64,000 bases of DNA from Phyllobates terribilis. Taxonomy: Eukaryota. The notes beneath the pieces were generated by a model. It saw only the letters and a list, made by a program, of their open reading frames with translations, was not told the origin of the DNA and searched no databases. Numbering within the stretch: position 1 is the first letter of the stretch; each line of letters opens with the position of its first letter. The DNA is taken from the NCBI RefSeq assembly GCF_046119375.1, contig NW_027362762.1, positions 391,530,001 through 391,594,000 of the forward strand. Reading direction: 5' to 3'. Position numbers and translations under genes: made by a program. Below, one piece after another: positions 2,797 through 63,489 of this stretch.

Positions 2797-4037
2797 AAGG
2801 CCTCCGTCACACGTCCGTATAAACCATACAAACATATATGAAAAACGGAACTGGTGACAGTGTGTCCGTTTTTACCATCAGTGTTTTCCATCCGTGTGTC
2901 CGTTTTTACCATCAGTGTTTTCCATCCGTGTGTCCGTTTTTCCCATCCGTGTGTCCGTTTTTACCATCAGTGTTTTCCCATCCGTGTGTCCGTTTTTACC
3001 ATCAGTGTTTTCCCATCCGTGTGTCCGTTTTTACCATCAGTGTTTTCCCATCCGTGTGTCCGTTTTTACCATCAGTGTTTTCCCATCCGTGTGTCCGTTT
3101 TTACCATCAGTGTTTTCCCATCCGTGTGTCCGTTTTTACCATCAGTGTTTTCCCATCCGTGTGTCCATTTTTACCATCAGTGTTCTCCCATCCGTGTGTC
3201 CGTTTTTACCATCAGTGTTTTCCATCCGTGTGTCCGTTTTTACCATCAGTGTTTTCCATCCGTGTGTCCGTTTTTACCATCAGTGTTTTCCATCCGTGTG
3301 TCCGTTTTTACCATCAGTGTTTTCCATCCGTGTGTCCGTTTTTACCATCAGTGTTTTCCATCCGTGTGTCCGTTTTTACCATCAGTGTTTTCCATCCGTG
3401 TGTCCGTTTTTACCATCAGTGTTTTCCATCCGTGTGTCCGTTTTTACCATCAGTGTTCTCCATCCGTGTGTCCGTTTTTACCATCAGTGTTCTCCCATCC
3501 GTGTGTCCGTTTTTACCATCAGTGTTTTAAATCCGTGTGTCCGTTTTTACCATCAGTGTTTTCCATCCGTGTGTCCGTTTTTACCATCAGTGTTTTCCAT
3601 CCGTGTGTCCGTTTTTACCATCAGTGTTTTCCATCCGTGTGTCCGTTTTTACCATCAGTGTTTTCCATCCGTGTGTCCGTTTTTACCATCAGTGTTTTCC
3701 ATCCGTGTGTCCGTTTTTACCATCAGTGTTTTTCCGATATGGATAAAGAAAGGAATAAATGACAGCTTCTCCTATAATTTGTGATGTTAAGCACGGACTG
3801 TACTGATGCCATCCGTATGCTGTACGTTTTTCACGGACCCATAGACTTGTATTGTCCTTTGTCTTTTGTGCTACGTGGCAAAAACAGACCTGTCTCCGTG
3901 TGTTTTGCATGTACACACAATCCGAGTAAAAACACAGACATGTGAACAGCACCATAGATTGTTTATTTCACGGTTCCCACACTTACCCATTACAAATACA
4001 ACACGTATGTGCAACACGGACATGTGAAGGAGGCCTG
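2797..4037. mobile_element. Non-autonomous DNA transposon (AGGCC..CACA termini) hosting a minisatellite, in EIF5B intron 1
   Basis: Left AGGCCTCCGTCACACGTCCGT matches the reverse complement of right ACGGACATGTGAAGGAGGCCT. Confidence 0.7.
2862..3732. repeat. 34/35-bp minisatellite, about 25 near-identical units
   Basis: Unit CCATCCGTGTGTCCGTTTTTACCATCAGTGTTTT(C); period 34 (e.g. 3242 to 3276) or 35 (3001 to 3036). Confidence 0.97.
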
Positions 4038-7230: not shown

Positions 7231-7358
7231 ATTGTTAATCAATATAGGATTAGTGGGAATCGCTTCTAAGTACAGTACAATTGGAGCATTAGTGATTTGT
7301 TTGCTTTTGGTATATAGAAGATAATATTTTTTTCAGACTAAAACAACTTGCTGAAAAG

Positions 7359-7535
7359 ATGGCAGCCGACATGTTTACCAAAGTCATGGAGAACCAGTTA
7401 CTGCAAACTGCCAAACTGATGGAGGAACAATTAGATGCAGAACTGGAAAAGCTGGATCAGATGGATGAAGATGAAATGGAACGTCTAAAAGAAAAGCGTC
7501 TGGAGGCATTAAAGAAGGCACAGCAGCAGAAGCAG
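7359..7535 (+). CDS. TXNDC9: TXNDC9 (phosducin-like protein 3/APACD) coding exon 1
   Basis: Acceptor tttcag at 7336, ATG 7359, MAADMFTKVMENQLLQTAKLMEEQLDAELEKLDQMDEDEMERLKEKRLEALKKAQQQKQ, donor CAG|gtaact, phase 0 (177 nt). Confidence 0.95.
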
Positions 7536-9154
7536 GTAACTTCCACTTGTCACACTGTCAGATATTTGTCTTATAAAGGCAACGTCTGTACAAGTTCCAT
7601 ATTGGTGTATATGAAGATCAGGGAGGGAGTTTCTTACTCTGGACCGTTCTCTTTGCTCAAGAAGAAAGATAAGATTTGTAGGGCTTGAGCTGTGCTTGCA
7701 TTACAAGGTTGGCCCTTCAGATTAATGGACACCTTGTGATACTACATTTCCAATGCACTGGTAGATGCCTGCATAACTGAGACTACTCCCCACCCCCGTC
7801 AATACCAGCTGTTTGCTGCAATTGCTTTGTAGTTCAGCATCTAGGGGGCTAAATAGTCATTACTGTTTCAGCAGACTTTGCATAAATCAATAATACTGGT
7901 GAATATAATAAGCTTTGTGATGTACCTTATCAAGGAAATATCTTGCTTCCTCTGGCCCTAAAATCATCATTCACTCTGAAAAACAACTCAAATCTATCTT
8001 GGTCAGAGCAGGGCCAACTCCCAACTCACTGTGGTGTCTGTGGAGAGGGGAGGGTGAAGGAGGAATACTCAACACATTAAGAACCATGCAGATCGTGCTG
8101 CAGTGTATAGCAAGAGTTTTACCCAATTCCTGTGCTACATTCTCAGCCACACAGCTGAGTACTGCAGTATACTATCCTCCTTTCTGCTATATAATGTCAT
8201 CCATGCTTCTACTGCACTTGAACACATTCTACACAGGTAAAGAAGAGCTGGAATCCGACTGGTTCTGTGTCCTGTGTATGGGAGACATTGTAGCAGCTAG
8301 TCTCCACCCACCAGCTCAGAGACAACTGAAAATTAGAGAGAGAGACCCTGAAGGGGAAAGACTGATGAAACATGTAGGATACAAGTCATATAGTGGCCAG
8401 AAATAGTCTAATTCCTCATGCACATACAAAAGCTTATTTGGAAACTTTACCTAAAACACTTCTTTATCCAGATAAATGACTAAGTGCCATTGTAAAAGTA
8501 ATGTGCGGGAACAAAGCTCCTGTTCTTGCAATTCAGCTGGAGCAGGTTTGGTTACCAGCTGTCAGACAAAGCCGGAGACCCTAGGAAGAGGACAAAAGCA
8601 GTTTATTACATAGCACTGAGTGAGCAGTGGCGATGCTTCAGTATGACCTGGTGATCACATTATCGCTGCCTCTTTGCCCTGCACAACAAGGCTACTGGGT
8701 TCAAGATGACCTTGATCCTCTCAACCAGTGACTTGTAGTATGTCACTTTAGGGTGCTGTTTTGCCCTGTAACTGGAGCTCCTATGGATGACCTAGTTACA
8801 GTGGAGAAAAAATGAGCAACAAAAGGAAAAAAAACAAAACATTTTGCTGGCATGTGGTGAGCAGTGCATCAGGGCAGAGGACGGCAGCCTGACATTGTAC
8901 TACTGTCAGACTACCGAACTGTTCACATCGCTGGAGAAGTTACTGCCGCAGGGCTGCTCTGAGCGGTGAGAACACTGCATATGGCGGAGACTTCTTCCAG
9001 TGGTGACAATAGCTTGAGAGCATGGGATTATTAGTACAATACCAGGCTGCTGATCACCGCCCTCCGCCACTGATAGCCTGTAGTGTTCAGAGCACAGCAG
9101 AGTAATCATCACGATACTGTGCTCTGAGCACTGACTCAGCTTTATGTCAGTGTA

Positions 9155-19341: not shown

Positions 19342-20766
19342 CAGGTGCTTCTCACAAAATTAGAATATCATCAAAAAGTTAATTTATTTCAGTTCTATAT
19401 AAAAAGTGAAACTCATATATTATATATAGTCATTACAAACAGAGTGATCTATTTCAAGTGTTTATTTCTGTTAATGTTGATGATTATGGATTACAGCCAA
19501 TGAAAACACAAAAGTCATTATCTCAGTAAATTAGAATACTTTATAACAACAGCTTGAAAAATGTTTTTACAATCTGAAATGTTGGGCTACTGAAATGTAT
19601 GTTCAGTAAATGCACTCAATACTTGGTCGGGGCTCCTTTTGCATCAATTATTGCATCAATGCGGCGTGGCATGGAGGCGATCAGCCTGTGGCACTGCTGA
19701 GGTGTTATGGAAGCCCAGGTTGCTTTGATAGCAGCCTTCAGCTCATCTACATTGTTGGGTCTGGTGTCTCTCTTCTTCCTCTTGACAATACTCCATAGAT
19801 TCTCTATGAGGTTAAGGTCAGGCGAGTTTGCCGGCCAATCAAGCACAGTGATACTGTTATTTATAAACCAGGTATTGGTACCTTTGGCAGTGTGGACAGG
19901 TGCCAAGTCCTGCTGGAGAATGAAATTTCCATCTCCAAAAAGCTTATAGGCAAAGGGAAGCATGAAGTGCTCTAAAATTTCCTTGCAGACGGCTGCGCTG
20001 ACTTTGGTCTTGATAAAACACAGTGGACTTACACCAGCAGATGACATGGCTCCCCAAACCATCACTGATTGTGGAAACTTCACACTAGACCTCAAGCAGC
20101 TTGGATTGTGTGCCTCTCCACTCTTCCTCCAGATTCTGGGACCTTGATTTCAAAAGTAAATGCAAAATTTACTTTCATCTGAAAACAACACCTTGGACCA
20201 CTGAGCAGCAGTCCAGGTCTTTTTCTCCTTCGCCCAGGTAAGACGCTTGTGAATTCCCCCCAAATTTTTGAATGGCCTTTTCTTAATCCTTTCAAGGCTG
20301 TGGTTATCCCGGTTGCTTCTGCACCTTTTTCAACCACACTTTTTCCTTCCACTCAACTTTCCATTAATATGCTTGGATACAGCACTCTGTGAACAGCCAG
20401 CTTCTTTAGCAATGACCTTTTGTGACTTACCCTCCTTGTAGAGTGTGCCAGTGACTGCCTTCAGGACATCTGTCAAGTCAGCAGTCTTCCCCATGATTGT
20501 GGAGCCTACTGAAACAGACTAAGGGACCTTTTTAAACTCGTAGGAAGCCTTTGCTGGTGTTTTTGTTAATTATTCTAATTTACTGAGATAATGACTTTTG
20601 TGTTTTCATTGGCTGTAAGCCATAATCATCAACATTAACAGAAATAAACACTTGAAATAGATCACTCTGTAATGACTCTATATAATATATGAGTTTCACT
20701 TTTTGTATTGAAGAACTGAAATAAATGAACTTTTTGATGATATTCTAATTTTGTGAGAAGCACCTG
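19342..20766 (-). mobile_element. Tc1 (DD34E) element, family A copy 1; internally deleted transposase pseudogene
   Basis: Long TIRs (about 200 bp) CAGGTGCTTCTCACAAAATTAGAAT; minus-strand fragments with VMVWGAMS, LQQDLAPVH and SPDLNLIENLW. Confidence 0.92.
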
Positions 20767-22168: not shown

Positions 22169-23782
22169 CAGTACAGACCAAAAGTTTGGACTCACCTTCT
22201 CATTTAAAGATTTTTCTGTATTTTCAAGACTATGAAAATTGTACATTCACACTAAAGGCATCAAAACTATGAATTAACACACGTGGAATTATATACTTAA
22301 CAAAAAAGTGTGAAACAACTGAAATATGTCTTATATTCTAGGTTCTTCAAAGTAGCCACCTTTTGCTTTGATGACTGCTTTGCACACTCTTGGCATTGTC
22401 TTGATGAGCTTCAAGAGGTAGTCTCTGGAAATGGTCTTCCAACAATCTTGAAGGAGTTCCCAGAGATGCTTAGCACTTGTTGGTCCTTTTGCCTTCACTC
22501 TGTGGTCCAGCTCACCCCAAACCATCTGGATTGGGTTTAGGTCTGGTGACTGTGGAGGCCAGGTCATCTGGCATAGCACCGCATCACTCTCCTTCTTGGT
22601 CAAATAGCCGTTACACAGCCTGGAGGTGTGTTTGGGGTCATTGTCCTGTTGAAAAATAAATGATGGTCCAGCTAAACGCAATCCGGATGGAATAGCATGC
22701 CGCTGCAAGATGCTGTGGTAGCCATGCTGGTTCAGTATGCCTTCAATTTTGAATAAATCCCCAGCAAAGCACCCCCACACCATCACACCTCCTCCATGCT
22801 TCACGGTGGGAACCAGGCACGTAGAGTCCATCCGTTCACCTTTTCTGCGTCGCACAAAGACACTGTGGTTGGAACCAAAGATCTCAAATTTGGACTCATC
22901 AGACCAAAGCACAGATTTCCACTGGTCTAATGTCCATTCATTGTATTCTTTAGCCCAAACAAGTCTCTTCTGCTTGTTGCCAGTCCTTAGCAGTGGTTTC
23001 CTAGCAGTTATTTTACCATGAAGGCCTGCTGCACAAAGTCTCCTCTTAACAGTTGTTGTAGAGATGTGTCTGCTGCTAGAACTCTGTGTGGCATTAACCT
23101 GGTCTCTAAACTGAACTGCTGATAACCTGCGATTTATGAGGTTGGTGACTCGGATAAACTTATCCTCAGAAGCAGAAGTGACTCTTGGTCTTCCTTTCCT
23201 GGGGCGGTCCTCATGTGAGCCAGTTTCTTTGTAGCGCTTGATTGTTTTTGCAACTGCACTTGGGGACACTTTCAAAGTTTTCCCAATTTTTCGGACTGAC
23301 TGACCTTCATTTCTTAAAGTAATGATGGCCACTTGTTTTTCTTTACTTAGCTGCTTTTTTCTCGCCATAATACAGATTCTAACAGTCTATTCAGTAGGAC
23401 TATCAGCTGTGCATCCACCAGACTTCTGCACAACACAACTGATGGTCCCAACCCCATTTATAAGGCAATAAATCGCACTTATTAAACCAGACAGGGCACA
23501 CCTGTGAAGTGAAAACCATTTCCGGTGACTACCTCTTGAAGCTCATCAAGAGAATGCCAAGAGTGTGCAAAGCAGTCATCAAAGCAAAAGGCGGCCACTT
23601 TGAAGAACCTAGAATATAAGACATATTTTCAGTTGTTTCACACTTTTTTGTTAAGTATATAATTCCACATGTGTTAATTCATAGTTTTGATGCCTTCAGT
23701 GTTAATGTGCAATTTTCAAAGTCATGAAAATACAGAAAAATCTTTAAATGAGAAGGTGTGTCCAAACTTTTGGTCTTTACTG
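22169..23782 (-). mobile_element. Full-length Tc1-like DD38E (Intruder-type) element
   Basis: TA|CAGTACAGACCAAAAGTTTGGAC...GTCCAAACTTTTGGTCTTTACTG|TA, 1614 bp, TIRs about 270 bp, 345-aa ORF. Confidence 0.93.
22331..23368 (-). CDS. Tc1-like transposase, open ORF, third catalytic residue E replaced by Q
   Basis: Paired-like N-terminus, GRPR motif, WSDESKF (D1), QQDNDPKH (D2), SPDLNPIQ 38 residues after D2 (CAG codon, plus-strand 22526-22528). Confidence 0.85.
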   Translation of the reverse strand: MARKKQLSKEKQVAIITLRNEGQSVRKIGKTLKVSPSAVAKTIKRYKETGSHEDRPRKGRPRVTSASEDKFIRVTNLINRRLSAVQFRDQVNATQSSSSRHISTTTVKRRLCAAGLHGKITARKPLLRTGNKQKRLVWAKEYNEWTLDQWKSVLWSDESKFEIFGSNHSVFVRRRKGERMDSTCLVPTVKHGGGVMVWGCFAGDLFKIEGILNQHGYHSILQRHAIPSGLRLAGPSFIFQQDNDPKHTSRLCNGYLTKKESDAVLCQMTWPPQSPDLNPIQMVWGELDHRVKAKGPTSAKHLWELLQDCWKTISRDYLLKLIKTMPRVCKAVIKAKGGYFEEPRI

Positions 23783-33711: not shown

Positions 33712-35347
<1,636 letters not shown>

Positions 35348-36025
35348 TACCTCTCCTGTGTGACCTCAGATTGGGGATGGTCACAGGATTCGGCTAGGGT
35401 TCCAAAAAGTTATGGAATCCCTGATTTTCAGTATATCTTCCCACCTGGAGGTGCCAGGCGCGAGATATTTTTGCCATATTTCCTAACATGATTTTAGCTT
35501 TCCATAGATTGGAAATATGGCATTTATATCGTTATCCTTCTGTCCAATGTTAATTTGGAGCTGATGTGCAGTGATGTAAGTAAATGTGTTACGCTCGCCA
35601 CTTCGTCACAACGCCGAAAATATGTCTCCCATAACAAGAGGACCTACGCTGTTCATAATTCAGCACACTTGGAATTTTTTCCACATTTTCCAATACATTG
35701 GTATGGTAAGATGAATGTTGTCATTCAAAACTACAACGTTTCTCACAATAAGACAAGCCCTCATATGACTGTCGGTGGAAAAATAAAAAGTTATGGCTCT
35801 TGAAAGAGGGGGAGAAAAACATGAACATGCAAAAAAACAGAATTGGCCATTCAAGTAGGGGTTAACGTTTTTTAAAATATGACTAAAGATATTAGCCAAG
35901 CTCTAGATCTACTTTTGTCTGAATAGTCCAGACTGTAAATGTTTTAGAAAATTTGCCTGTTTATTATGGTCACATCATACTAAAATAATGTTTGTTCTTC
36001 TTTTAGGTCCACAGCTAAAATAACA

Positions 36026-36032
36026 ATGGCGT
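36026..36032 (+). CDS. LYG: g-type lysozyme start micro-exon (exon 36007-36032; coding ATG GCG T)
   Basis: ttttag|gtccacagctaaaataacaATGGCGT|gtaagt. Strong Kozak context (A-3, G+4) and consensus donor. Phase 1 joins the next exon's CT to give Ser (MASKYGN...). Confidence 0.75.
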
Positions 36033-36756
36033 GTAAGTATCTATAGCAAAATATGTCATTTGTGATGTGAAGGGAGAGCTCCTATAAGAGTTGCAGCCAT
36101 AGTATTAATTACCATGCCAATAATAATGCTAGTTTCAGGTGTTTTATACAAGATGTTATCAACAGATCCTCCATATCAATGCCAGTTACTGCCCTACCGG
36201 CAGATATGTGAAGCAGCCAGGAGTCACTTCCATGAAGCCTCTTTCATGAGCTCAGTTATCAGCACAGGAAATAGGACAGTATGCAATCATTTCCATGCAG
36301 CTTCTATCATCCCTCCTAATATAAGTCATCATCAGGGAGTTGCTTGCAACAGCTTCTGTCACCGCTGTCCCCTGATAATGTCCGAAATCAATTGCTTTGA
36401 TGGAGGCAGTGAGAAGTGACCACAGCTTCTGTTACTGCCACCACACAAATTCTGTAACACAGCTTTTTTCACTGAAACGAGTCGTCATCAGGGTGAGGTG
36501 ACAGAAGGAGGGCGAGTGACACATGTCTACAGCCCATTGTTCTATATGAAGGCATCAGCTGCTTTCACTGTAAACTGTATTTTTACTGTAATTATCATCA
36601 TTTTAATCTGTATAAGTTTCTTCAGTTCCAAAAAAATCAGACAACTTTAATTTTTTTGTGGAGAGGGCAACAAATGCTCTATTTTTACAGACTACAGTAG
36701 ATATTAGGCTTAAGATAGCTCGATTTTATTAGATAACAGCAATCCAGAAATTTGAA

Positions 36757-36789
36757 GATGTTGCAGTCTATACAGATGACCTTCATCAG
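36757..36789 (-). ncRNA. Degenerate hammerhead-ribozyme-like motif (minus copy)
   Basis: CUGAUGA-A-GGUC[AUCUGUAUA]GACU-GCAA-C-AUC; GAAA box mutated; distal stem I GCAAUCCA/UGGAUUGC is present. Confidence 0.4.
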
Positions 36790-36880
36790 TTTATGGATTG
36801 CCAAGGAGAATGTTTGATTCAGGATAATTGTGCTAAGTTTAGCATGTGGTATCCACCACAGTGTGAAGTGAAAAGGCACC

Positions 36881-36913
36881 CTGATGAAGGTCTACTGTAT
36901 AGACTGAAATGTC
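36881..36913 (+). ncRNA. Degenerate hammerhead-ribozyme-like motif (plus copy)
   Basis: CUGAUGA-A-GGUCUA[CUGUA]UAGACU-GAAA-U-GUC: both conserved core boxes, 6-bp stem II and a GUC triplet; stem I is poor. Confidence 0.5.
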
Positions 36914-37535
36914 TTCAAATTTCTGGATTGCTGTTATTTAATAAAATCTAACTTATTCATGATATCTCAGTGCCAAGTCTAATATCTACTGTGTTATGGG
37001 ACAGGATCCTACTTGAGCACCTACTGACCAAATGTGCCATGCTCTTCCTTATCATTGACTATTTTTACGAACTGTCCTGGAATTTCTAGACGGTTGGCAA
37101 CCCTGGTGACAAGTGTGGTGGCGGTTCTAGAAGCTGCATTAACTTCTCTCTGCCTCCATCCCCGCAATTGATTCAGACGTCATCAGGCGGCGGCGGTGAA
37201 AGAAGCTGTTGTAAGTAACAGCAGCCGTGGCCCCAGGATGTTCTGTTCTGAGTGGGGTGATAGAAGCTGTGGAGAATTGACTGCAGGGCCATCCTCTGAT
37301 GAAGTCCCATTGGAGACTTTCCTCAAACCAAACGTAACTTGAAGTAAAGTAAAAGGCTGTATATGGAGAATGGTACGAAATGTTGTAACAAAGCTAATTA
37401 CAAAAGTGGTTCAATATTTATATAGTGCATTTTATGTATCAGACTACCCCTTTAATCATAAAAAGAGGGATGTAGCTATCACAATTCGATAAATGACTCC
37501 AAGAATTTTAATGTTTGTTTCTGATTTCTTCACAG

Positions 37536-37616
37536 CTAAATATGGTAATCTTGACAAAATTTCTACCACTGGTGCCTCGGTTACAACTGGCAGACAAGAT
37601 GGAGAAAACATTGCTG
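37536..37616 (+). CDS. LYG: g-type lysozyme coding exon 2
   Basis: cttcacag|CT AAA TAT GGT... KYGNLDKISTTGASVTTGRQDGENIA(G), donor G|gtaag, 81 nt. Contains the YGN..TTGAS motif of lysozyme g. Confidence 0.9.
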
Positions 37617-40472: not shown

Positions 40473-42338
40473 CATAGTAACATAGTAACATAGTTTGTAA
40501 AGCCGAATAAAGACTTGCGTCCATCAAGTTCGACCTGTTAGTTCTGTAATTGCTAAAGTTGATCCAGAGGAGGGCAAAAACCCCCAAATGATTTGGCCAA
40601 TCTTCACCTGAGGAAAAATTCCCTCCCGACTCTGAAACCAGCAGTCAGAATAAATCCCTGTATCAACCTACTATTTTATTTTATTTTTAAGTATATGCTG
40701 AAATCTGCCTGGTATCTAGAAATGCATCCAGTCCCCGCTTGAACTGGTGTAGTGAATCCGACATTACCGTCTCCTCACTCAGTGAATTCCATATTCTCAC
40801 TGCTCTTACCGTAAAGAACCCCTTCCTATGCTGGTGCTGAAACCTTTTCTCTTCCAGTCTTAGTGAGTGCCCTCTTGTTACCGTAATATCCCTCCTTTTG
40901 AACAAATCTCGGGCAAGATATCTATACTGTCCCCTAACATATTTGTACACATTTATTATGTCCCCCCTCAACCTTCTCTTTTCCAGGCTGAATAGTCCTA
41001 GTTTTGCCAACCTCTCTGGGTATTGCAGTCCCTCCATTCCCTTTATTAATTTTGTTGCCCTCCTTTGTACCTTTTCAAGCTCATTTATATCCTTTCTATA
41101 TATTGGGGCCCATAACTGAGCACAGTATTCCAAGTGTGGTCTGACCAGTGCTTTGTACAGTGGAAGAACAATGTTCTCATCCTTTGCAGCTATACCTCTT
41201 CTGATACATCCCATTACCCTGTTTGCCCTTACAGCGGCGGCCTGACTTTGGGCACTCCAATTTAGTTTGCTATCAATCAAGATGCCCAAGTCCTTCTCCA
41301 TCTCTGAATTCCCCAATGATTTCCCATTCAGTGAGTACTGGTGACTTCCATTTTTCCTTCCCATATGTATGACCTTACATTTCTCCTCGTTAAACCTCAT
41401 TTGCCATTTAATGCTCCACCTACCCAGCTTATCCAAATCCCTCTGTAGGTCTGCACTGTCCTCTTTTGTATTAATTGTTTTACATAACTTTGTGTCATCT
41501 GCAAATATTGATATTTTACTATTTATCCCGTTGACTATGTCGTTAATAAAGATATTAAATAACATTGGGCCTAGTACAGACCCCTGTGGTACCCCACTAG
41601 TGACGCTTACCCAATCTGAGTATATTCCATTTATAACCACCCTCTGCCATCTATCCTTTAGCCAGTTAGCTACCCATTTGCAGACATTTTCCCCCAGCCC
41701 CATCATTCTCATTTTGTATACCAACCTATTATGTGGCACGCTATCGAACGCTTTTGAGAAGTCGAGATACACGACATCCACTGGTTCCCCCTGATCTACT
41801 CGAGAGCTAACCTCCTCGTAGAAGTCAATCAGGTTTGTTTGGCAGGAGCGATTCCTCATGAATCCATGTTGGTTCGGGATTAAAAGATTATTAGCATCAA
41901 GATGCTCCGTAATTGCCTCTTTAATGAAGCTTTCAAAAATTTTGCCCACAACGGACGTCAGACTCACCGGCCGATAGTTTCCGGCGTCACTTTTCGCTCC
42001 CTTTTTGAATATTGGCACTACATTTGCCTGTCGCCAATCAAGTGGCACAGACCCAGTCTCAACAGAGTCCTTAAATATAAGATATAACGGTCTGTCTATC
42101 ACATTACTTAGTTCCCTTAGTACCCGTGGGTGTATGCCATCAGGTCCTGGTGATTTGTTTATTTTAATGTTACTGAGGCGTTTCTGTACCCCAGCTTGGG
42201 TTAGATTTGTCATACTTAGTGGAGGATTAAGTTTGTCACTTCTCATTTCTCCTGTTAGTTCGATTTCCTTTGTGAAAGTTGTCGAAAAAAAATTATTTAA
42301 TAGATTAGCTTTATCCTCATCTTTCTCTATGATTTTGA
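40473..42338 (-). mobile_element. 5'-truncated CR1 LINE, antisense in LYG intron 3
   Basis: Open reverse-transcriptase frame, about 200-bp 3' UTR, and an 8-bp terminal repeat (TTACTATG)n at 40473-40494. Confidence 0.93.
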
Positions 42339-42357
42339 TGCTGCAGAAACATGGCAA
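40687..42357 (-). CDS. CR1 ORF2 C-terminal part (reverse transcriptase), uninterrupted but 5'-truncated
   Basis: KSPGPDG, NYRPVSLTS, YLDFSKAFD, GVPQGSVLGP and catalytic FADD motifs. The listed start Met is in flanking DNA. Confidence 0.85.
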   Translation of the reverse strand: MPCFCSIKIIEKDEDKANLLNNFFSTTFTKEIELTGEMRSDKLNPPLSMTNLTQAGVQKRLSNIKINKSPGPDGIHPRVLRELSNVIDRPLYLIFKDSVETGSVPLDWRQANVVPIFKKGAKSDAGNYRPVSLTSVVGKIFESFIKEAITEHLDANNLLIPNQHGFMRNRSCQTNLIDFYEEVSSRVDQGEPVDVVYLDFSKAFDSVPHNRLVYKMRMMGLGENVCKWVANWLKDRWQRVVINGIYSDWVSVTSGVPQGSVLGPMLFNIFINDIVNGINSKISIFADDTKLCKTINTKEDSADLQRDLDKLGRWSIKWQMRFNEEKCKVIHMGRKNGSHQYSLNGKSLGNSEMEKDLGILIDSKLNWSAQSQAAAVRANRVMGCIRRGIAAKDENIVLPLYKALVRPHLEYCAQLWAPIYRKDINELEKVQRRATKLIKGMEGLQYPERLAKLGLFSLEKRRLRGDIINVYKYVRGQYRYLARDLFKRRDITVTRGHSLRLEEKRFQHQHRKGFFTVRAVRIWNSLSEETVMSDSLHQFKRGLDAFLDTRQISAYT

Positions 42358-42663
42358 ACTTCAGCATTGACTTAACTCTTTCATATTACAGAGGGTGAAA
42401 TCTGAGATCAAGTCCACATGAAAATCTGTTTCCAAACGTAGATGCGAATGCCGCAGATTTTTATTAGTGATTTTGTTACAGATACACAATATATCCATCC
42501 TGTGTGGACATAGTCTTTCTGAATGGTAACTATTGAGCCAGTTGCTCTCTACTTCTGGCTATTTCTTTCCTCTTTCCCTTTGAGGCAACATTTGGAAGCT
42601 TTATACTAATGTATATGAAAATACAGAACTGAACGTTCTCTTCTGATATTCATAATTTTAAAG

Positions 42664-58429: not shown

Positions 58430-58703
58430 ACATGTACTGATGGTGGTTCTAGTGCTGAATTCATGTACTGATGGTGATCCTAGTAATGTATTCATCTACT
58501 GATGGTTGTCCTGGTGATATATTCATGCGCTGATGGTAGTTTTGTTGATGTATTCCTCTACTGATGGTTGTTATTGTGATGTATACCAGTACTGATGAGG
58601 GTTTTGATGCTGTGTCTGTACTGATGAGGGTTATACTGATGTATTTCTGTACTGCTGGTGGATCTGATGATACATTTCTGTACTGCTGGTTGTTCTGGTG
58701 ATG
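58430..58703. repeat. About 30-bp minisatellite (TACTGATGGTGGTTCTGGTGATGTATTC-like), continuing at 61844-61930
   Basis: The array is split by the Tc1 at 58706-61841. Confidence 0.8.
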
Positions 58704-58705
58704 TA

Positions 58706-61700
58706 CAGTGGTGTGAAAAAGTGTTTGCCCCCTTCCTGATTTCTTATTCTTTTGCATTTTTGTCACATTTAAATGTTTCAGATCACAAAACAAATTTAAA
58801 TATTAGACAAATATAACACAAGTAAACACAAAGTGCAGTTTTTAAATGAAGGTCTTTATTGTTAAGGGAAAAAGAAATCCAAACCTACAGGGCCCTGTGT
58901 GAAAAAGTGATTGCCCCTAACCTAAAAACTGGTTGGGCCATCCTTAGCAGCAACAACTGCAACCAAGCGTTTGCGATAACTGGCAATCAGTCTTTTACAA
59001 CGCTCTGGAGGAATTTTTGTCCCACTCATCTTTGCAAAATTGTTGTAGTTAAGCCACATTGGAGGGTTACTAAGCATGAACAGCCTTTTTAAGGTTTTGC
59101 TACAGCATCTCAATCGGATTAAGGTCAGGACTTAGACTAGGTCACTCCAAAGTCTTAATTTTGTTTTTCTTAAGCCATTGAGAGGTGAACTTGCTGGTGT
59201 GTTTTGGATCATTGTCCTGCTGCATAACCCAAGTGTGCTTCAGCTTGAGGTCATGAACAGATGGCCGGACATTTTCCTTCAGGATTTTTTGGTAGACAGC
59301 AGAATTCATGGTTCCATTTACCACAGTAAGTCTTCCTGGTCCTGATGCAACAAAACAGACCCAGACCATCACACTACCACCACCATATTTTGGTATATGG
59401 TATGATGTTCCTTTTCTGAAATGCTGTTTTACTTCTATGCCAGATGTAATGGGACATACAAGTGCTTCTCACTAAATTAGAATATCATCAAAAAGTTAAT
59501 TTATTTCAGTTCCTCAATGCAAAAAGTGAAACTCATATATTATATAGAGCCATTACAAACAGAGTGATCTATTTCAAATATTTATTTCTGTTAATGTTGA
59601 TGATTATGGCTTACAGCCAATGAAAACACAAAAGTCATTATTTCAGTAAATTAGAATACTTTATAACAACAGCTTGAAAAATGTTTTTAAAATCCGAAAT
59701 GTTGGCCTACTGAGATGTATGTTCAGTGAATGCACTCAATACTTGGTCGGGGCTCCTTTTGCATCAATTATTGCATCAATGCGGCGTGGCATGGAGGCGA
59801 TCAGCCTGTGGCACTGCTGAGGTGTTATGGAAGCCCAGGTTGTTTTGATAGCAGCCTTCAGCTCGTCTGCATTGTTGTGTCTGGTGTCTCTCATCTTCCT
59901 CTTGACAATACGGGGTTAAGGTCAGGCTAGTTTGCTGGCCAATCAAGCACAGTGATACTGTTGTTTTTAAACCAGGTATTGGTACTTTTGGGAGTGTGGA
60001 CAGGTGCCACGTCCTGCTGGAGAATTAAATTTCCATCTCCAAAAAGCTTGTCAGCAGAGGGAAGCATGAAGTGCTCTAAAATTTCCTGATAGACGGCTGC
60101 GCTGACTTTGGTCTTGATAAAACACAGTGAACCTACACCAGCAGATGACATGGCTCCCCAAACCATCTCTGATTGTGGAAACTTCACACTAGACCTCAAG
60201 CAGCTTGGATTGTGTGCCTCTCCACTCTTCCTCCAGACTCTGGGACCTTGATTTCCAAATGAAATGCAAAATGTACTTTCATCTGAAAATAACACCTTGG
60301 ACCACTGAGCAACAGTCCAGGTCTTTTTCTCCTTGGCCCAGGTAAGATGCTTCTGACGTTGTCTATTGGTCAAGAGTGGCTTGACACAAAAAATGCGACA
60401 CTTGTAGCTCATGTCCTGGATACGTCTCTGTGTGGTGGCTCTTGAAGCAATGACTCCAGCAGCAGTCCACTCCTTGTGAATCTCCACAAATTTTTGAATA
60501 GCCTTTTCTTAACAATCCTTTCAAGGCTGCGGTTATCCCGGTTGCTTGTGCACCTTTTTCTACCACACTTTTTCCTTCCACTAAACTTTCCATTAATATG
60601 CTTGGATACAGCACTCTGTGAACAGCCAGCTTCTTTAGCAATGACCTTTTGTGGCTTACCCACCTTGTGGAGTGTGTCAATGACTGCCTTTTGGACATCT
60701 GTCAAGTCAGCAGTCTTCCTCGTGATTGTGGAGCCTACTGAAACAGAATAAGGGACCTTTTTAAATGCTAAGGAAGCCTTTCCAGGTGTTTTTTGGTAAT
60801 TATTCTAATTTCCTGAGATAATGACTTTTGTGTTTTCATTGGCTGTAAGCCATACTCATCAGCATTAACAGAAATAAACACCTGAAATAGATCACTCTGT
60901 TTGTAATGACTCTGTATAATATATGAGTTTCACTTTTTGTAGCGAAGAACTGAAATAAATTAACTTTTTGATTATATTCTAATTTAGTGAGAAGAACTTG
61001 TACACGTTCAACTTTTGTCTCGTCAGTCCACAGAACATTCTCCCAAAAGTCTTGGCAATCATCAAGGTGTTTTCTGGTATAACTGAGATGAGCTTTTATG
61101 TTCTTTTTGCTCACAGTGGTTTTCGTCTGGGAACTCTGCCATGCATGGCATTTTTGCCCAGTTTCTTTCTTATGGTGGAGTCATGAACACTGAACTTAAC
61201 TGAGGTAAGTGAGGCGTGCAGTTCTTTGTATATTTTTGTGGGGTCTTTTGTGACCTCTTGAATGAGTGGTCGCTGTGCTTTTGGGGTCATTTTGGTCAGC
61301 CGGCTACTCCTGGGAAGGTTCACCACTGTTCTATGTTTTCGCCATTTGTGGATAATGGCTCTCACTGTTGTTTGCTGGGGTCTCAAAGCTCAATAACCTT
61401 TTTGAGACTTATAGATCTCAATTACTTTGTTTGTCATTTGTTCCTGAATTTCTTTGGATCGCAGCATGATGTGTAGCTTTTAAAGATCTTTAGGTCTACT
61501 TCACTTTGTCAGGCCGGTCTTATTTAAGCGAGTTCTTGATTGAAAACAGGTGTGGCAGTAATCAGGCCTGTGTGTGGCTAGGGAAATTGAACGCAGCTTC
61601 CCAAAGATGTGATACAACACAGTTAATTTATGTTTTATGGGGGGGGCAATCACTTTTTCAGATTTGGATTTCTTTTCCCCTTAATAATAAAGACCTTCCC

Positions 61701-61841: not shown

Positions 61842-62796
61842 TATATCTGTACTGATGAGGGTTGTGATGCTGTGTTTCCGTAATGCTGGTGGTTCTGGTG
61901 ATGGATTCTTGTGCGGTTATTGGTTCTGATCCTGTACACATGTAACAATCCATAACTTGTAAGATTACATGATACATGGCTATGTTAATAAAATGTTGTG
62001 CTGTCTGGCAAGTTAAGGTTACTATGTTTTTATTTATGTCAAGAGCATTAAAGAGGTTGTTCAAGTTTGTGATGAGTCTGCAGTCATTCTAAATGACTGC
62101 ACACTTCTGAATTCTCGCAGCGCGCACTGCATGCTCTTAGGATTCTCTGGTGCCTTCGATGAGGGTTAGAGGTCACAAAACCGCAAGTATGCGATTTGCA
62201 TACACGCGTTCACATGGCAAATAGAAATGTGTGGCCTCATTCAATGAAAATGAATTGAGCGAGGTCAGACACGTCTAATCGGAATGTGGCCAGAAGTATA
62301 TAAATCGCATACCCTATCACAAGCCCTTTAATTATAAAGTTAATCCCTGTAGCATGCCAATCCTAACAGTTTGTAATATACTCACAGTCAGGATTCAGCT
62401 CTGCTTACTAGTTCCAGCAGTCATCACATGGCCATTTCACTCATTTTCATACTTACGGTCATGTGACAACTAGTTTTTCTTCCTGCGTCTCTCAGTTTTT
62501 CACTAACCATTGAGAGAATTAGGAAGAGCAGCTAGTCGGCACATGACTGTATGTGTGCAAATCGCATATGAATGATTAGTTACATGACGACTTCTCAAAC
62601 CGCATAGGGGAGGGGGCACCAATCTGAATTCTTGCCCCGGGTGCCAGAAAGTCACCTCTGAGCAGAACCCCGCCATAAGTGACCCCATATTGCAAACTAC
62701 ACCTCTGCAGTGAGCATATTGACAGGTGTGTCACAGAATTTTATACCATTGGGCAGTGAAGAAAAAATAATTACATTTGTACAAAAAAAAAAACGG

Positions 62797-63320
62797 TCTG
62801 GGTCTCCATGCGAGATCTCGCCTCGTGGGCTAAGGATGATTCTGAGAAAAGTCAGGAATCAGCCCAGAACTACATGGGAATACCTGGTCAATGACCTGAA
62901 GAGAGCTGGGAACGCAGTCTCAAACATTACTGTTAGTAACACACTACGCCGTTATGGATTAAAATCCTGCAGGGCACGCAAGGTCCCCCTGCTCACACCA
63001 GCATATGTCCAGGCACGTTTGAAGTTTAGCAATGACCATCTGGATGATCCAGAGGAGGCATGGGTGAAGGTAATGTGGTCAGATGAGACCAAAATAGAAC
63101 TTTTTGGTATCAACTCCACTCACCGTGTTTGGAGTAAGAAGGATGAATACAACCCCAAGAACACCATCCCAAACATGAAGCATGGAGGGGGAAACATCAT
63201 ACTTTGGTGGTGCTTTTCTGCAAAGGGGACAGGACGACTGCCCTGTATTGAAGAAAGGATGGATGGGGTCATGTGTCACAAGATTTTGGCCAACAAGCTC
63301 CTTCCCTCAGTAAGAGCATC
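62797..63320 (+). mobile_element. Internal Tc1 transposase fragment without TIRs
   Basis: [20 protein letters not shown] and [10 protein letters not shown] motifs; truncated before D2. Confidence 0.85.
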
Positions 63321-63489
63321 AGTGGGCTTGAACTGGCCCACAGGAGAATCCTCCGGTTGGCCTCTGTGGGCCACCACTCTCTTATATGAGTAGTGCTTGG
63401 CACAATATACTTGAATCACTATGTGCAGACAAAGTCAGCATCTTATTCATTTAAAAATCTACCCAGTTCATTGTTATATAAATGACATG

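Follow-up and report, generated by a model that had tools for sequence, protein, structure and literature searches.

Head-to-head Penelope-like element ends in a lysozyme intron of Phyllobates terribilis, one of them likely copied from a spliced RNA

A stable fold-back with two inverted hammerhead ribozyme motifs lies inside a lysozyme gene of Phyllobates terribilis, which raises the question of what kind of element left it there, how it was copied and whether it still acts on its host. We analysed it within a window of 64,000 nt, the whole stretch of contig NW_027362762.1 from 391,530,001 to 391,594,000; coordinates are positions in this window unless a contig or another locus is named.

The insertion and its relatives

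As the initial annotation had supposed, the host gene encodes a g-type lysozyme; it lies on the + strand. Pfam left two of its short exons unrecognised, and a PDB search found lysozyme g (E 1e-15), the match lying in a later exon. The exon at 36007-36032 (+), with a likely start codon at 36026, was placed by sequence and splice consensus and is in phase with the next one, a coding exon at 37536-37616 (+). The element sits in the intron at 36033-37535, whose limits again follow splice consensus.

Both 33-nt motifs are present and decayed where they had been placed, at 36881-36913 (+) and 36789-36757 (−), and they differ at 5/33 positions rather than at the single TG/CA site originally described. 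The minus core (36757-36789, antisense to the lysozyme gene) is broken: A13 has become C, G16.2 has become A and two stem II pairs are lost. Its distal stem I, also anticipated, is there, with 36795-36801 pairing with 36739-36746. The plus core keeps both boxes and GUC as claimed, but the accompanying hint that it might cut is not supported: this copy begins at C3 with its 5' stem I strand missing and 0/4 proximal stem I pairs, U at 11.1 and 15.2 marks two CpG changes that weaken helices, and the core is fully paired inside the predicted fold-back. Neither copy combines an intact core with a stem I on the same strand. Neither is predicted to cut, the minus copy because its core is broken, the plus copy because the 5' strand of its stem I is missing and the hairpin encloses the core. 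Positions follow the customary hammerhead numbering, and the usual splice and TATA consensus are used throughout. The Rfam check suggested at the outset turned up nothing, hammerhead models accounting for 0/7 matches here at E<=10, a result that is uninformative for minimal motifs. Over the 64-kb window only two matches to a hammerhead model were strong; a weak partial one at 58601-58665 (17.7 bits, E 0.095) is probably a chance match or else a remnant of great age.

The two arms are paired along 73 nt at 89% (36717-36789 with 36881-36953), beyond which lies an outer inverted pair of 18 nt at 94% (36694-36711 and 36975-36992) with TA on its left side. The fold of 36660-37020 has z = −13.4, and 0/100 shuffles were equally good. 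The unit had first been drawn from 36694 to 36992; its true extent is 36694-37058, given that family homology runs 66 nt further and is followed by a flanking direct repeat. The long arm (36694-36881, −) reads as the 5' end of a spliced Penelope pLTR transcript and runs from an inferred transcription start at 36881 to a point at 36694 that we call end 1; it has no tail, and about 16 nt are deleted near 36712-36716. The short-headed arm (36881-37058, +) is a pLTR copy cut off at C3 that continues through end 1 to end 2. Between these two preferred 3' ends, on this arm only, lies the one-sided tail of a Penelope-like element (PLE) at 36993-37058 (+), ~66 nt long and homologous to the pLTR-ORF junction of autonomous copies. 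The flanks carry a direct repeat, 36679-36693 on the left and 37059-37073 on the right (both +), which matches at 13/15 positions (2 mismatches) with the first 10 identical; in a test limited to the boundaries, this repeat has an empirical p of 0.019.

The same arrangement recurs in the family. The tail stands on exactly one arm in 8/9 inverted pairs and on both in 0. Direct repeats 28-38 nt beyond the tail anchor were seen in 8/8 pairs tested, 6 of them at p<0.05, with 2/8 old pairs showing no clear duplication; this boundary-limited test left out the tailless pair L026. It replaced a wide search for target duplications that proved powerless, only L006 and L098 of the 9 pairs exceeding the null maximum. 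An inverted 5'-truncated copy at the 5' end, a tail on one end only and a target-site duplication (13/15, p 0.019), all features of EN+ Penelope-like insertions, are found together at this locus. The unit 36694-37058 is a real, decayed insertion of two head-to-head Penelope-like ends.

The Penelope connection comes from relatives, as the proposed genome-wide check had foreseen. At L062 an inverted pLTR is followed by a truncated reverse transcriptase (RT), a CxxCxxC zinc-finger linker, GIY-YIG and a pLTR with nearly the window's core, 94% identical over 35 nt. Upstream of the family copies L008 and L014 are same-strand remnants of GIY-YIG or RT. A search with the L062 protein gave 150 scored matches, many of them frames of 824-836 aa in divergent arrays, and the pLTRs of these relatives share both end points with the window's arms. 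The reading of the motifs as inverted minimal type-I hammerheads of Penelope pLTR origin is thus supported, whereas 'retrozyme-derived' is not, since no tandem monomers occur in the loci read. For the window's own subfamily the searches found ORF remnants and no intact frame. The CxxCxxC linker between RT and endonuclease in the sister elements L062 and L178, compared with the account in the sections of PMC8557442 drawn on here, suggests that this subfamily may be of Neptune type. A GIY-YIG profile search found a hammerhead-like motif within 1.5 kb at 1/20 loci and no match to the window element. Penelope ORFs that are full-length and nearly identical (824-836 aa) form divergent arrays with as many as five members, for example at C7:358093501-358110981; such arrays suggest recent or current activity.

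DNA searches of the 10.6-Gb genome returned at least 61, at least 22 and at least 43 matches at about 67-93% identity. Core positions are conserved in 33-36 of 36 aligned family copies, and the family ancestor had both core boxes, an NUH site and a palindromic stem III, that is, a minimal type-I hammerhead. Both CpG sites are split among these 36 copies: the stem III dinucleotide is CG in 17, CA in 8, TG in 4 and otherwise in 7, the one at stem II/G12 is CG in 19, TG in 13 and otherwise in 4. The TG/CA difference had been put down to CpG decay, which these counts bear out. The ancestral core deduced on that basis exists as an exact genomic copy at C8:328499291, one of the 86 intact cores, from several families, returned by a two-motif pattern search (control 0). 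The expected covariation in stem II was seen across families, where the first free pair is Watson-Crick in 15/23 (p 0.0007), the second reaches p 0.04 and the third shows none, but inside the window's family it did not rise above shuffles (37/500 as high). One proximal stem I pair, within the family, is Watson-Crick in 21/36 copies (permutation p 0.0004, kinship uncorrected).

An intron missing from the long arm

The stretch 36794-36881 (−), 88 nt, corresponds to pLTR exon 1, which ends in the 5' strand of the distal stem I, and the junction between 36794 and 36793 falls at the exact place of a GT-AG intron in genomic relatives. Upstream of the core, family copies come in two classes, with either a leader of ~90 nt that has a fixed 5' end, or a pyrimidine tract and AG 4 nt before C3. 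Among 61 copies sorted by script, 36 were leader-joined, 7 of acceptor type and 18 unclear; with L008 added by hand to the acceptor type, spliced copies make up 36/44 of those classed. Unspliced family copies have the same exon 1 followed by GT..395 nt..AG in L008, by GT..411..AG in L181 and, with an insert, by GT..950 nt..AG in L180/L182; in L025 the interval is 437 nt and the donor is mutated. A donor pattern search gave 2 matches, both true, and 0 in the control. A TATA-like box precedes the fixed 5' end by 30 nt in L181, 29 nt in L025 and 20 nt in L008.

Because four acceptor-type copies carry the same leader further upstream, we read 36881-36794 as exon 1 with the intron missing exactly, and the long arm was therefore likely reverse-transcribed from spliced sense RNA. 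The splice evidence at the locus comes from the long arm, the plus arm beginning past the junction. Intron retention, a further feature of EN+ Penelope-like insertions, is absent here; the long arm reads as a processed PLE product. That 36694-37058 is one decayed insertion of two head-to-head Penelope ends, whose long arm likely stems from spliced sense RNA, is a conclusion that we hold with good confidence.

Spliced and unspliced copies are mixed on a tree of 113 columns and 61 rows, with 8 changes of state, at least 4 of which are forced by starred (strong) branches. A single clade for the splice state was rejected (p-AU 1.2e-7), on a tree that is weakly resolved and with 18 copies unclassed. 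The sample is biased towards spliced copies, since the queries held exon 1. Splicing may not be a strict requirement for stem I, as unspliced copies could form a shorter alternative stem, judged by eye.

Sister families have a comparable intron layout. A hammerhead was in range at 24/30 ORF-linked sister loci; AG stands 4 nt before C3 in 24/24, an upstream exon, GT donor and promoter-like boxes are found in 23/24, and the intron is retained in 24/24 pLTRs, several of which share arrays and are not independent. The pLTR of the active sister family L178 contains two GT-AG introns, 94 and 186 nt long, around a 56-nt middle exon (L178:4654-4989). Among the 30 top exon-1 matches in that family, 26 are unspliced with promoter and 4, from three insertions, are doubly spliced without promoter. 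At L199, L203, L210 and L211 the middle exon starts with GT, and these are not unspliced copies. When a spliced copy was the query, 7/7 independent short insertions lacked both introns and 0/7 entered the ORF beyond the tail; the 7 insertions come from the 8 loci examined, and the other 22, for the most part copies of a single duplicated block, were left out. All but one of them (6/7) begin 21-35 nt after the TATA box, most at 29-30; the other, L217, is truncated and was spliced through an alternative donor 19 nt downstream. Perfect duplications of 14-17 nt flank 5/7 of these young insertions, and 2/7 show no clear one. In a second young family, 4 copies have donor and acceptor, 5 arms have the exact junction and 1 arm has it minus 2 nt. 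RNA-like contigs of a related organism contain no joint at L178's own splice sites; one such contig joins the middle exon to the hammerhead exon as L211 does, but it may be DNA and is not counted as evidence.

From these families it appears highly probable that the pLTR would contain, besides a Pol II promoter and exon 1, an intron that stops 4 nt short of the hammerhead core and two internal sites for priming, and that priming at the sites close to the RNA 5' end would give cDNAs of 190-280 nt which terminate at the transcription start and arrive without a promoter.

Two further observations concern young copies. L222-L243 (C48 and C11:362-367 Mb) are one spliced head-to-head insertion that recurs at least 28 times at a spacing of roughly 170-280 kb or multiples, and the regularity places it inside a very large tandemly repeated block. 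The young fold-backs L034 and L039 are independent, and in each the arms differ, as seen by eye, by the same A/G change in exon 1, which could reflect two template variants or RNA editing.

How the pair may have formed

In seven pairs (this window, L098, L023, L006, L011, L222 and L219) each arm holds sequence that the other lacks: the arm reaching further 5' is tailless and the other is tailed, the second arm of L219 being tail alone. An arm that reaches the start without a tail, beside a tailed arm without exon 1, means that neither was copied from the other, and this mutual exclusion favours two separately primed cDNAs. An autonomous Neptune-type protein would make a staggered cut of about 15 nt, and each DNA end would prime its own cDNA, one at end 1 and one at end 2, before both are joined head to head. 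Such twin priming, with a staggered cut and two separately primed cDNAs, is the simplest account, and we consider it reasonably likely.

A single cDNA that folded back and copied itself, with one arm later trimmed by endonuclease and a deletion in the centre, would start from the same origin and has published roots: self-priming is the reading of head-to-head PLE junctions in the parts of PMC3846280 consulted, and trimming is the guess for the tail in those of PMC8557442. In L019, L020, L101 and L218 the tail is on the longer arm, which agrees with fold-back and two-primer models alike. In the seven pairs with mutually exclusive arms, however, fold-back needs two extra, well-placed deletions each time, and an antisense template is unable to splice at the sense GT-AG sites; we regard this course of events as unlikely. 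It would be improbable, too, that a non-autonomous master without introns, SINE- or retrozyme-like and with its own transcript, gave rise to the short copies. The majority share of spliced copies (36/44) and the amphibian pLTR-derived retrozymes described in the sections used of the preprint bioRxiv 10.64898/2026.07.22.740005 speak for such a master. Spliced copies, however, lack the TATA region, come from three or more families that differ in exon structure and are interspersed with unspliced ones on the tree, where starred branches force at least 4 changes, and the loci read contained no head-to-tail monomer array. The joining of tail and leader into a circular or tandem monomer was rejected on similar grounds: no locus read has such a junction, and the leader is exon 1.

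The outer inverted pair, with its 18 nt at 94% and a TA on the left, might suggest the terminal inverted repeats (36694-36711 and 36975-36992) of a DNA-transposon MITE, the outcome named beforehand as fatal to the Penelope reading. It is not a terminal repeat, because homology continues to ~37058, the tail is one-sided and direct repeats flank the unit; the duplication measures about 15 nt, and the relatives, which are associated with RT and GIY-YIG, mostly consist of a single arm or are inverted at other points. The one-sided tail in 8/9 pairs refutes a MITE, which we consider scarcely tenable. Recruitment of the plus hammerhead or of the hairpin to process or regulate lysozyme pre-mRNA is very improbable. 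The plus copy does lie in gene sense with both boxes kept, in a very stable hairpin, but it has no 5' stem I strand and two helix-weakening CpG changes, its core is sequestered, and the arms now diverge by 11% and have undergone a deletion. Moreover, both boxes are kept in 20/36 family copies, and their survival here is therefore no sign of selection.

Returning to two separately primed cDNAs, a wider proposal follows, towards which we lean only slightly: vertebrate Penelope elements would routinely copy spliced sense 5' RNA from two internal sites, used simultaneously, yielding promoterless processed mini-copies and head-to-head fold-backs; intron retention would reflect a second, unspliced long template in place of antisense copying; and splicing would switch the strand that forms the outer stem I.

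Relation to known elements and to the host

Several parts of this picture are established for PLEs. The inverted copy, the tail and the target duplication are already known (PMC8557442 and PMC3846280, in the sections drawn on). In vitro, the protein of PAc, a Poseidon element of Anolis, elongates both strands of the cut target and initiates reverse transcription at two internal positions bounding the tail, and it ran on RNA that the hammerhead had not cut (PMC11167929, in part). The two preferred 3' ends flanking the tail and inserted copies with uncut hammerhead are the same here; PAc differs in belonging to the Poseidon clade, and the intron and the joining of inverted arms fall outside the sections of that paper used. 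With Pen2a_Av (PMC3846280) and the scheme of PMC8557442, as far as the sections used go, the window insertion shares head-to-head pLTR arms, a one-sided tail, a duplicated target and, in its sisters, RT, zinc-finger linker and GIY-YIG. In those sections EN+ insertions have tails of 30-40 nt, against about 60 here, and duplications of 8-10, against 14-17 in young relatives. The window insertion has no ORF between its arms and has lost the pLTR intron, whereas the same sections stress its retention.

The intron is where our data depart most from these accounts. Part of PMC2377424 describes a promoter and a 5' intron in the pLTR and proposes selection for retention; antisense self-priming was proposed in PMC3846280, in the portion considered, for head-to-head junctions and intron retention, with an unspliced sense template left open. 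Exactly spliced head-to-head copies fit neither the antisense nor the unspliced sense template as stated there. As head-to-head insertions with exact intron loss show, this structure can also arise from spliced RNA of the sense strand, and two primers are indicated where the arms have mutually exclusive sequences. Intron retention is a well-known trait of PLEs; this class of copies makes their copying mechanism testable, each short copy recording the element's transcription start and splice isoform. We found no description of spliced pLTR copies in the literature covered; most subscription papers, Repbase, and the supplements of PMC4209133 (frog pLTRs) and the bioRxiv preprint were outside its scope.

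As for the ribozymes, minimal hammerheads are described in pLTRs, with opposite-strand pairs 100-700 bp apart, in the sections of PMC4209133 used, where an intron ending at helix I is noted only for Drosophila virilis Penelope. The metazoan type-I motifs reported there share with ours the core boxes, an extra nucleotide after A9, a long stem II and a palindromic ACGU in place of helix III. Compared with them, both copies here are decayed, and the D. virilis intron layout occurs in vertebrate families of putative Neptune type, where the genome carries fixed spliced copies. Short spliced copies explain many of the scattered single minimal hammerheads in such genomes. Tandem retrozymes derived from pLTRs are known as well (bioRxiv 10.64898/2026.07.22.740005 and PMC7761336, in part). 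These non-LTR retrozymes are likewise non-coding, pLTR-related and of type I, but in the sections used they are tandem head-to-tail units, and the locus studied here consists of one head-to-head pair that has a fixed 5' end, a tail and a duplication.

Taken alone, the insertion is an ordinary and presumably dead repeat, and its current effect on lysozyme pre-mRNA is likely that of an intronic hairpin alone, as judged from the predicted fold. In the same intron an older inverted pair, 36282-36446 and 37113-37285, brackets the element at 74% identity over 178 columns; it is built of short internal repeats and could fold into a larger hairpin. A LINE-type reverse transcriptase frame of 557 aa, which we take to be CR1-like, lies in a later lysozyme intron at 40687-42360 (−). 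Elsewhere in the window there are frames at 19616-20149, 22331-23386, 34419-34883, 59927-60804 and 62683-63393 that presumably encode Tc1/mariner-like transposases. The intervals 7296-7688 and 2823-3784 hold an exon that we assume to resemble a thioredoxin-domain/phosducin-like gene and a tandem minisatellite yielding long open frames.
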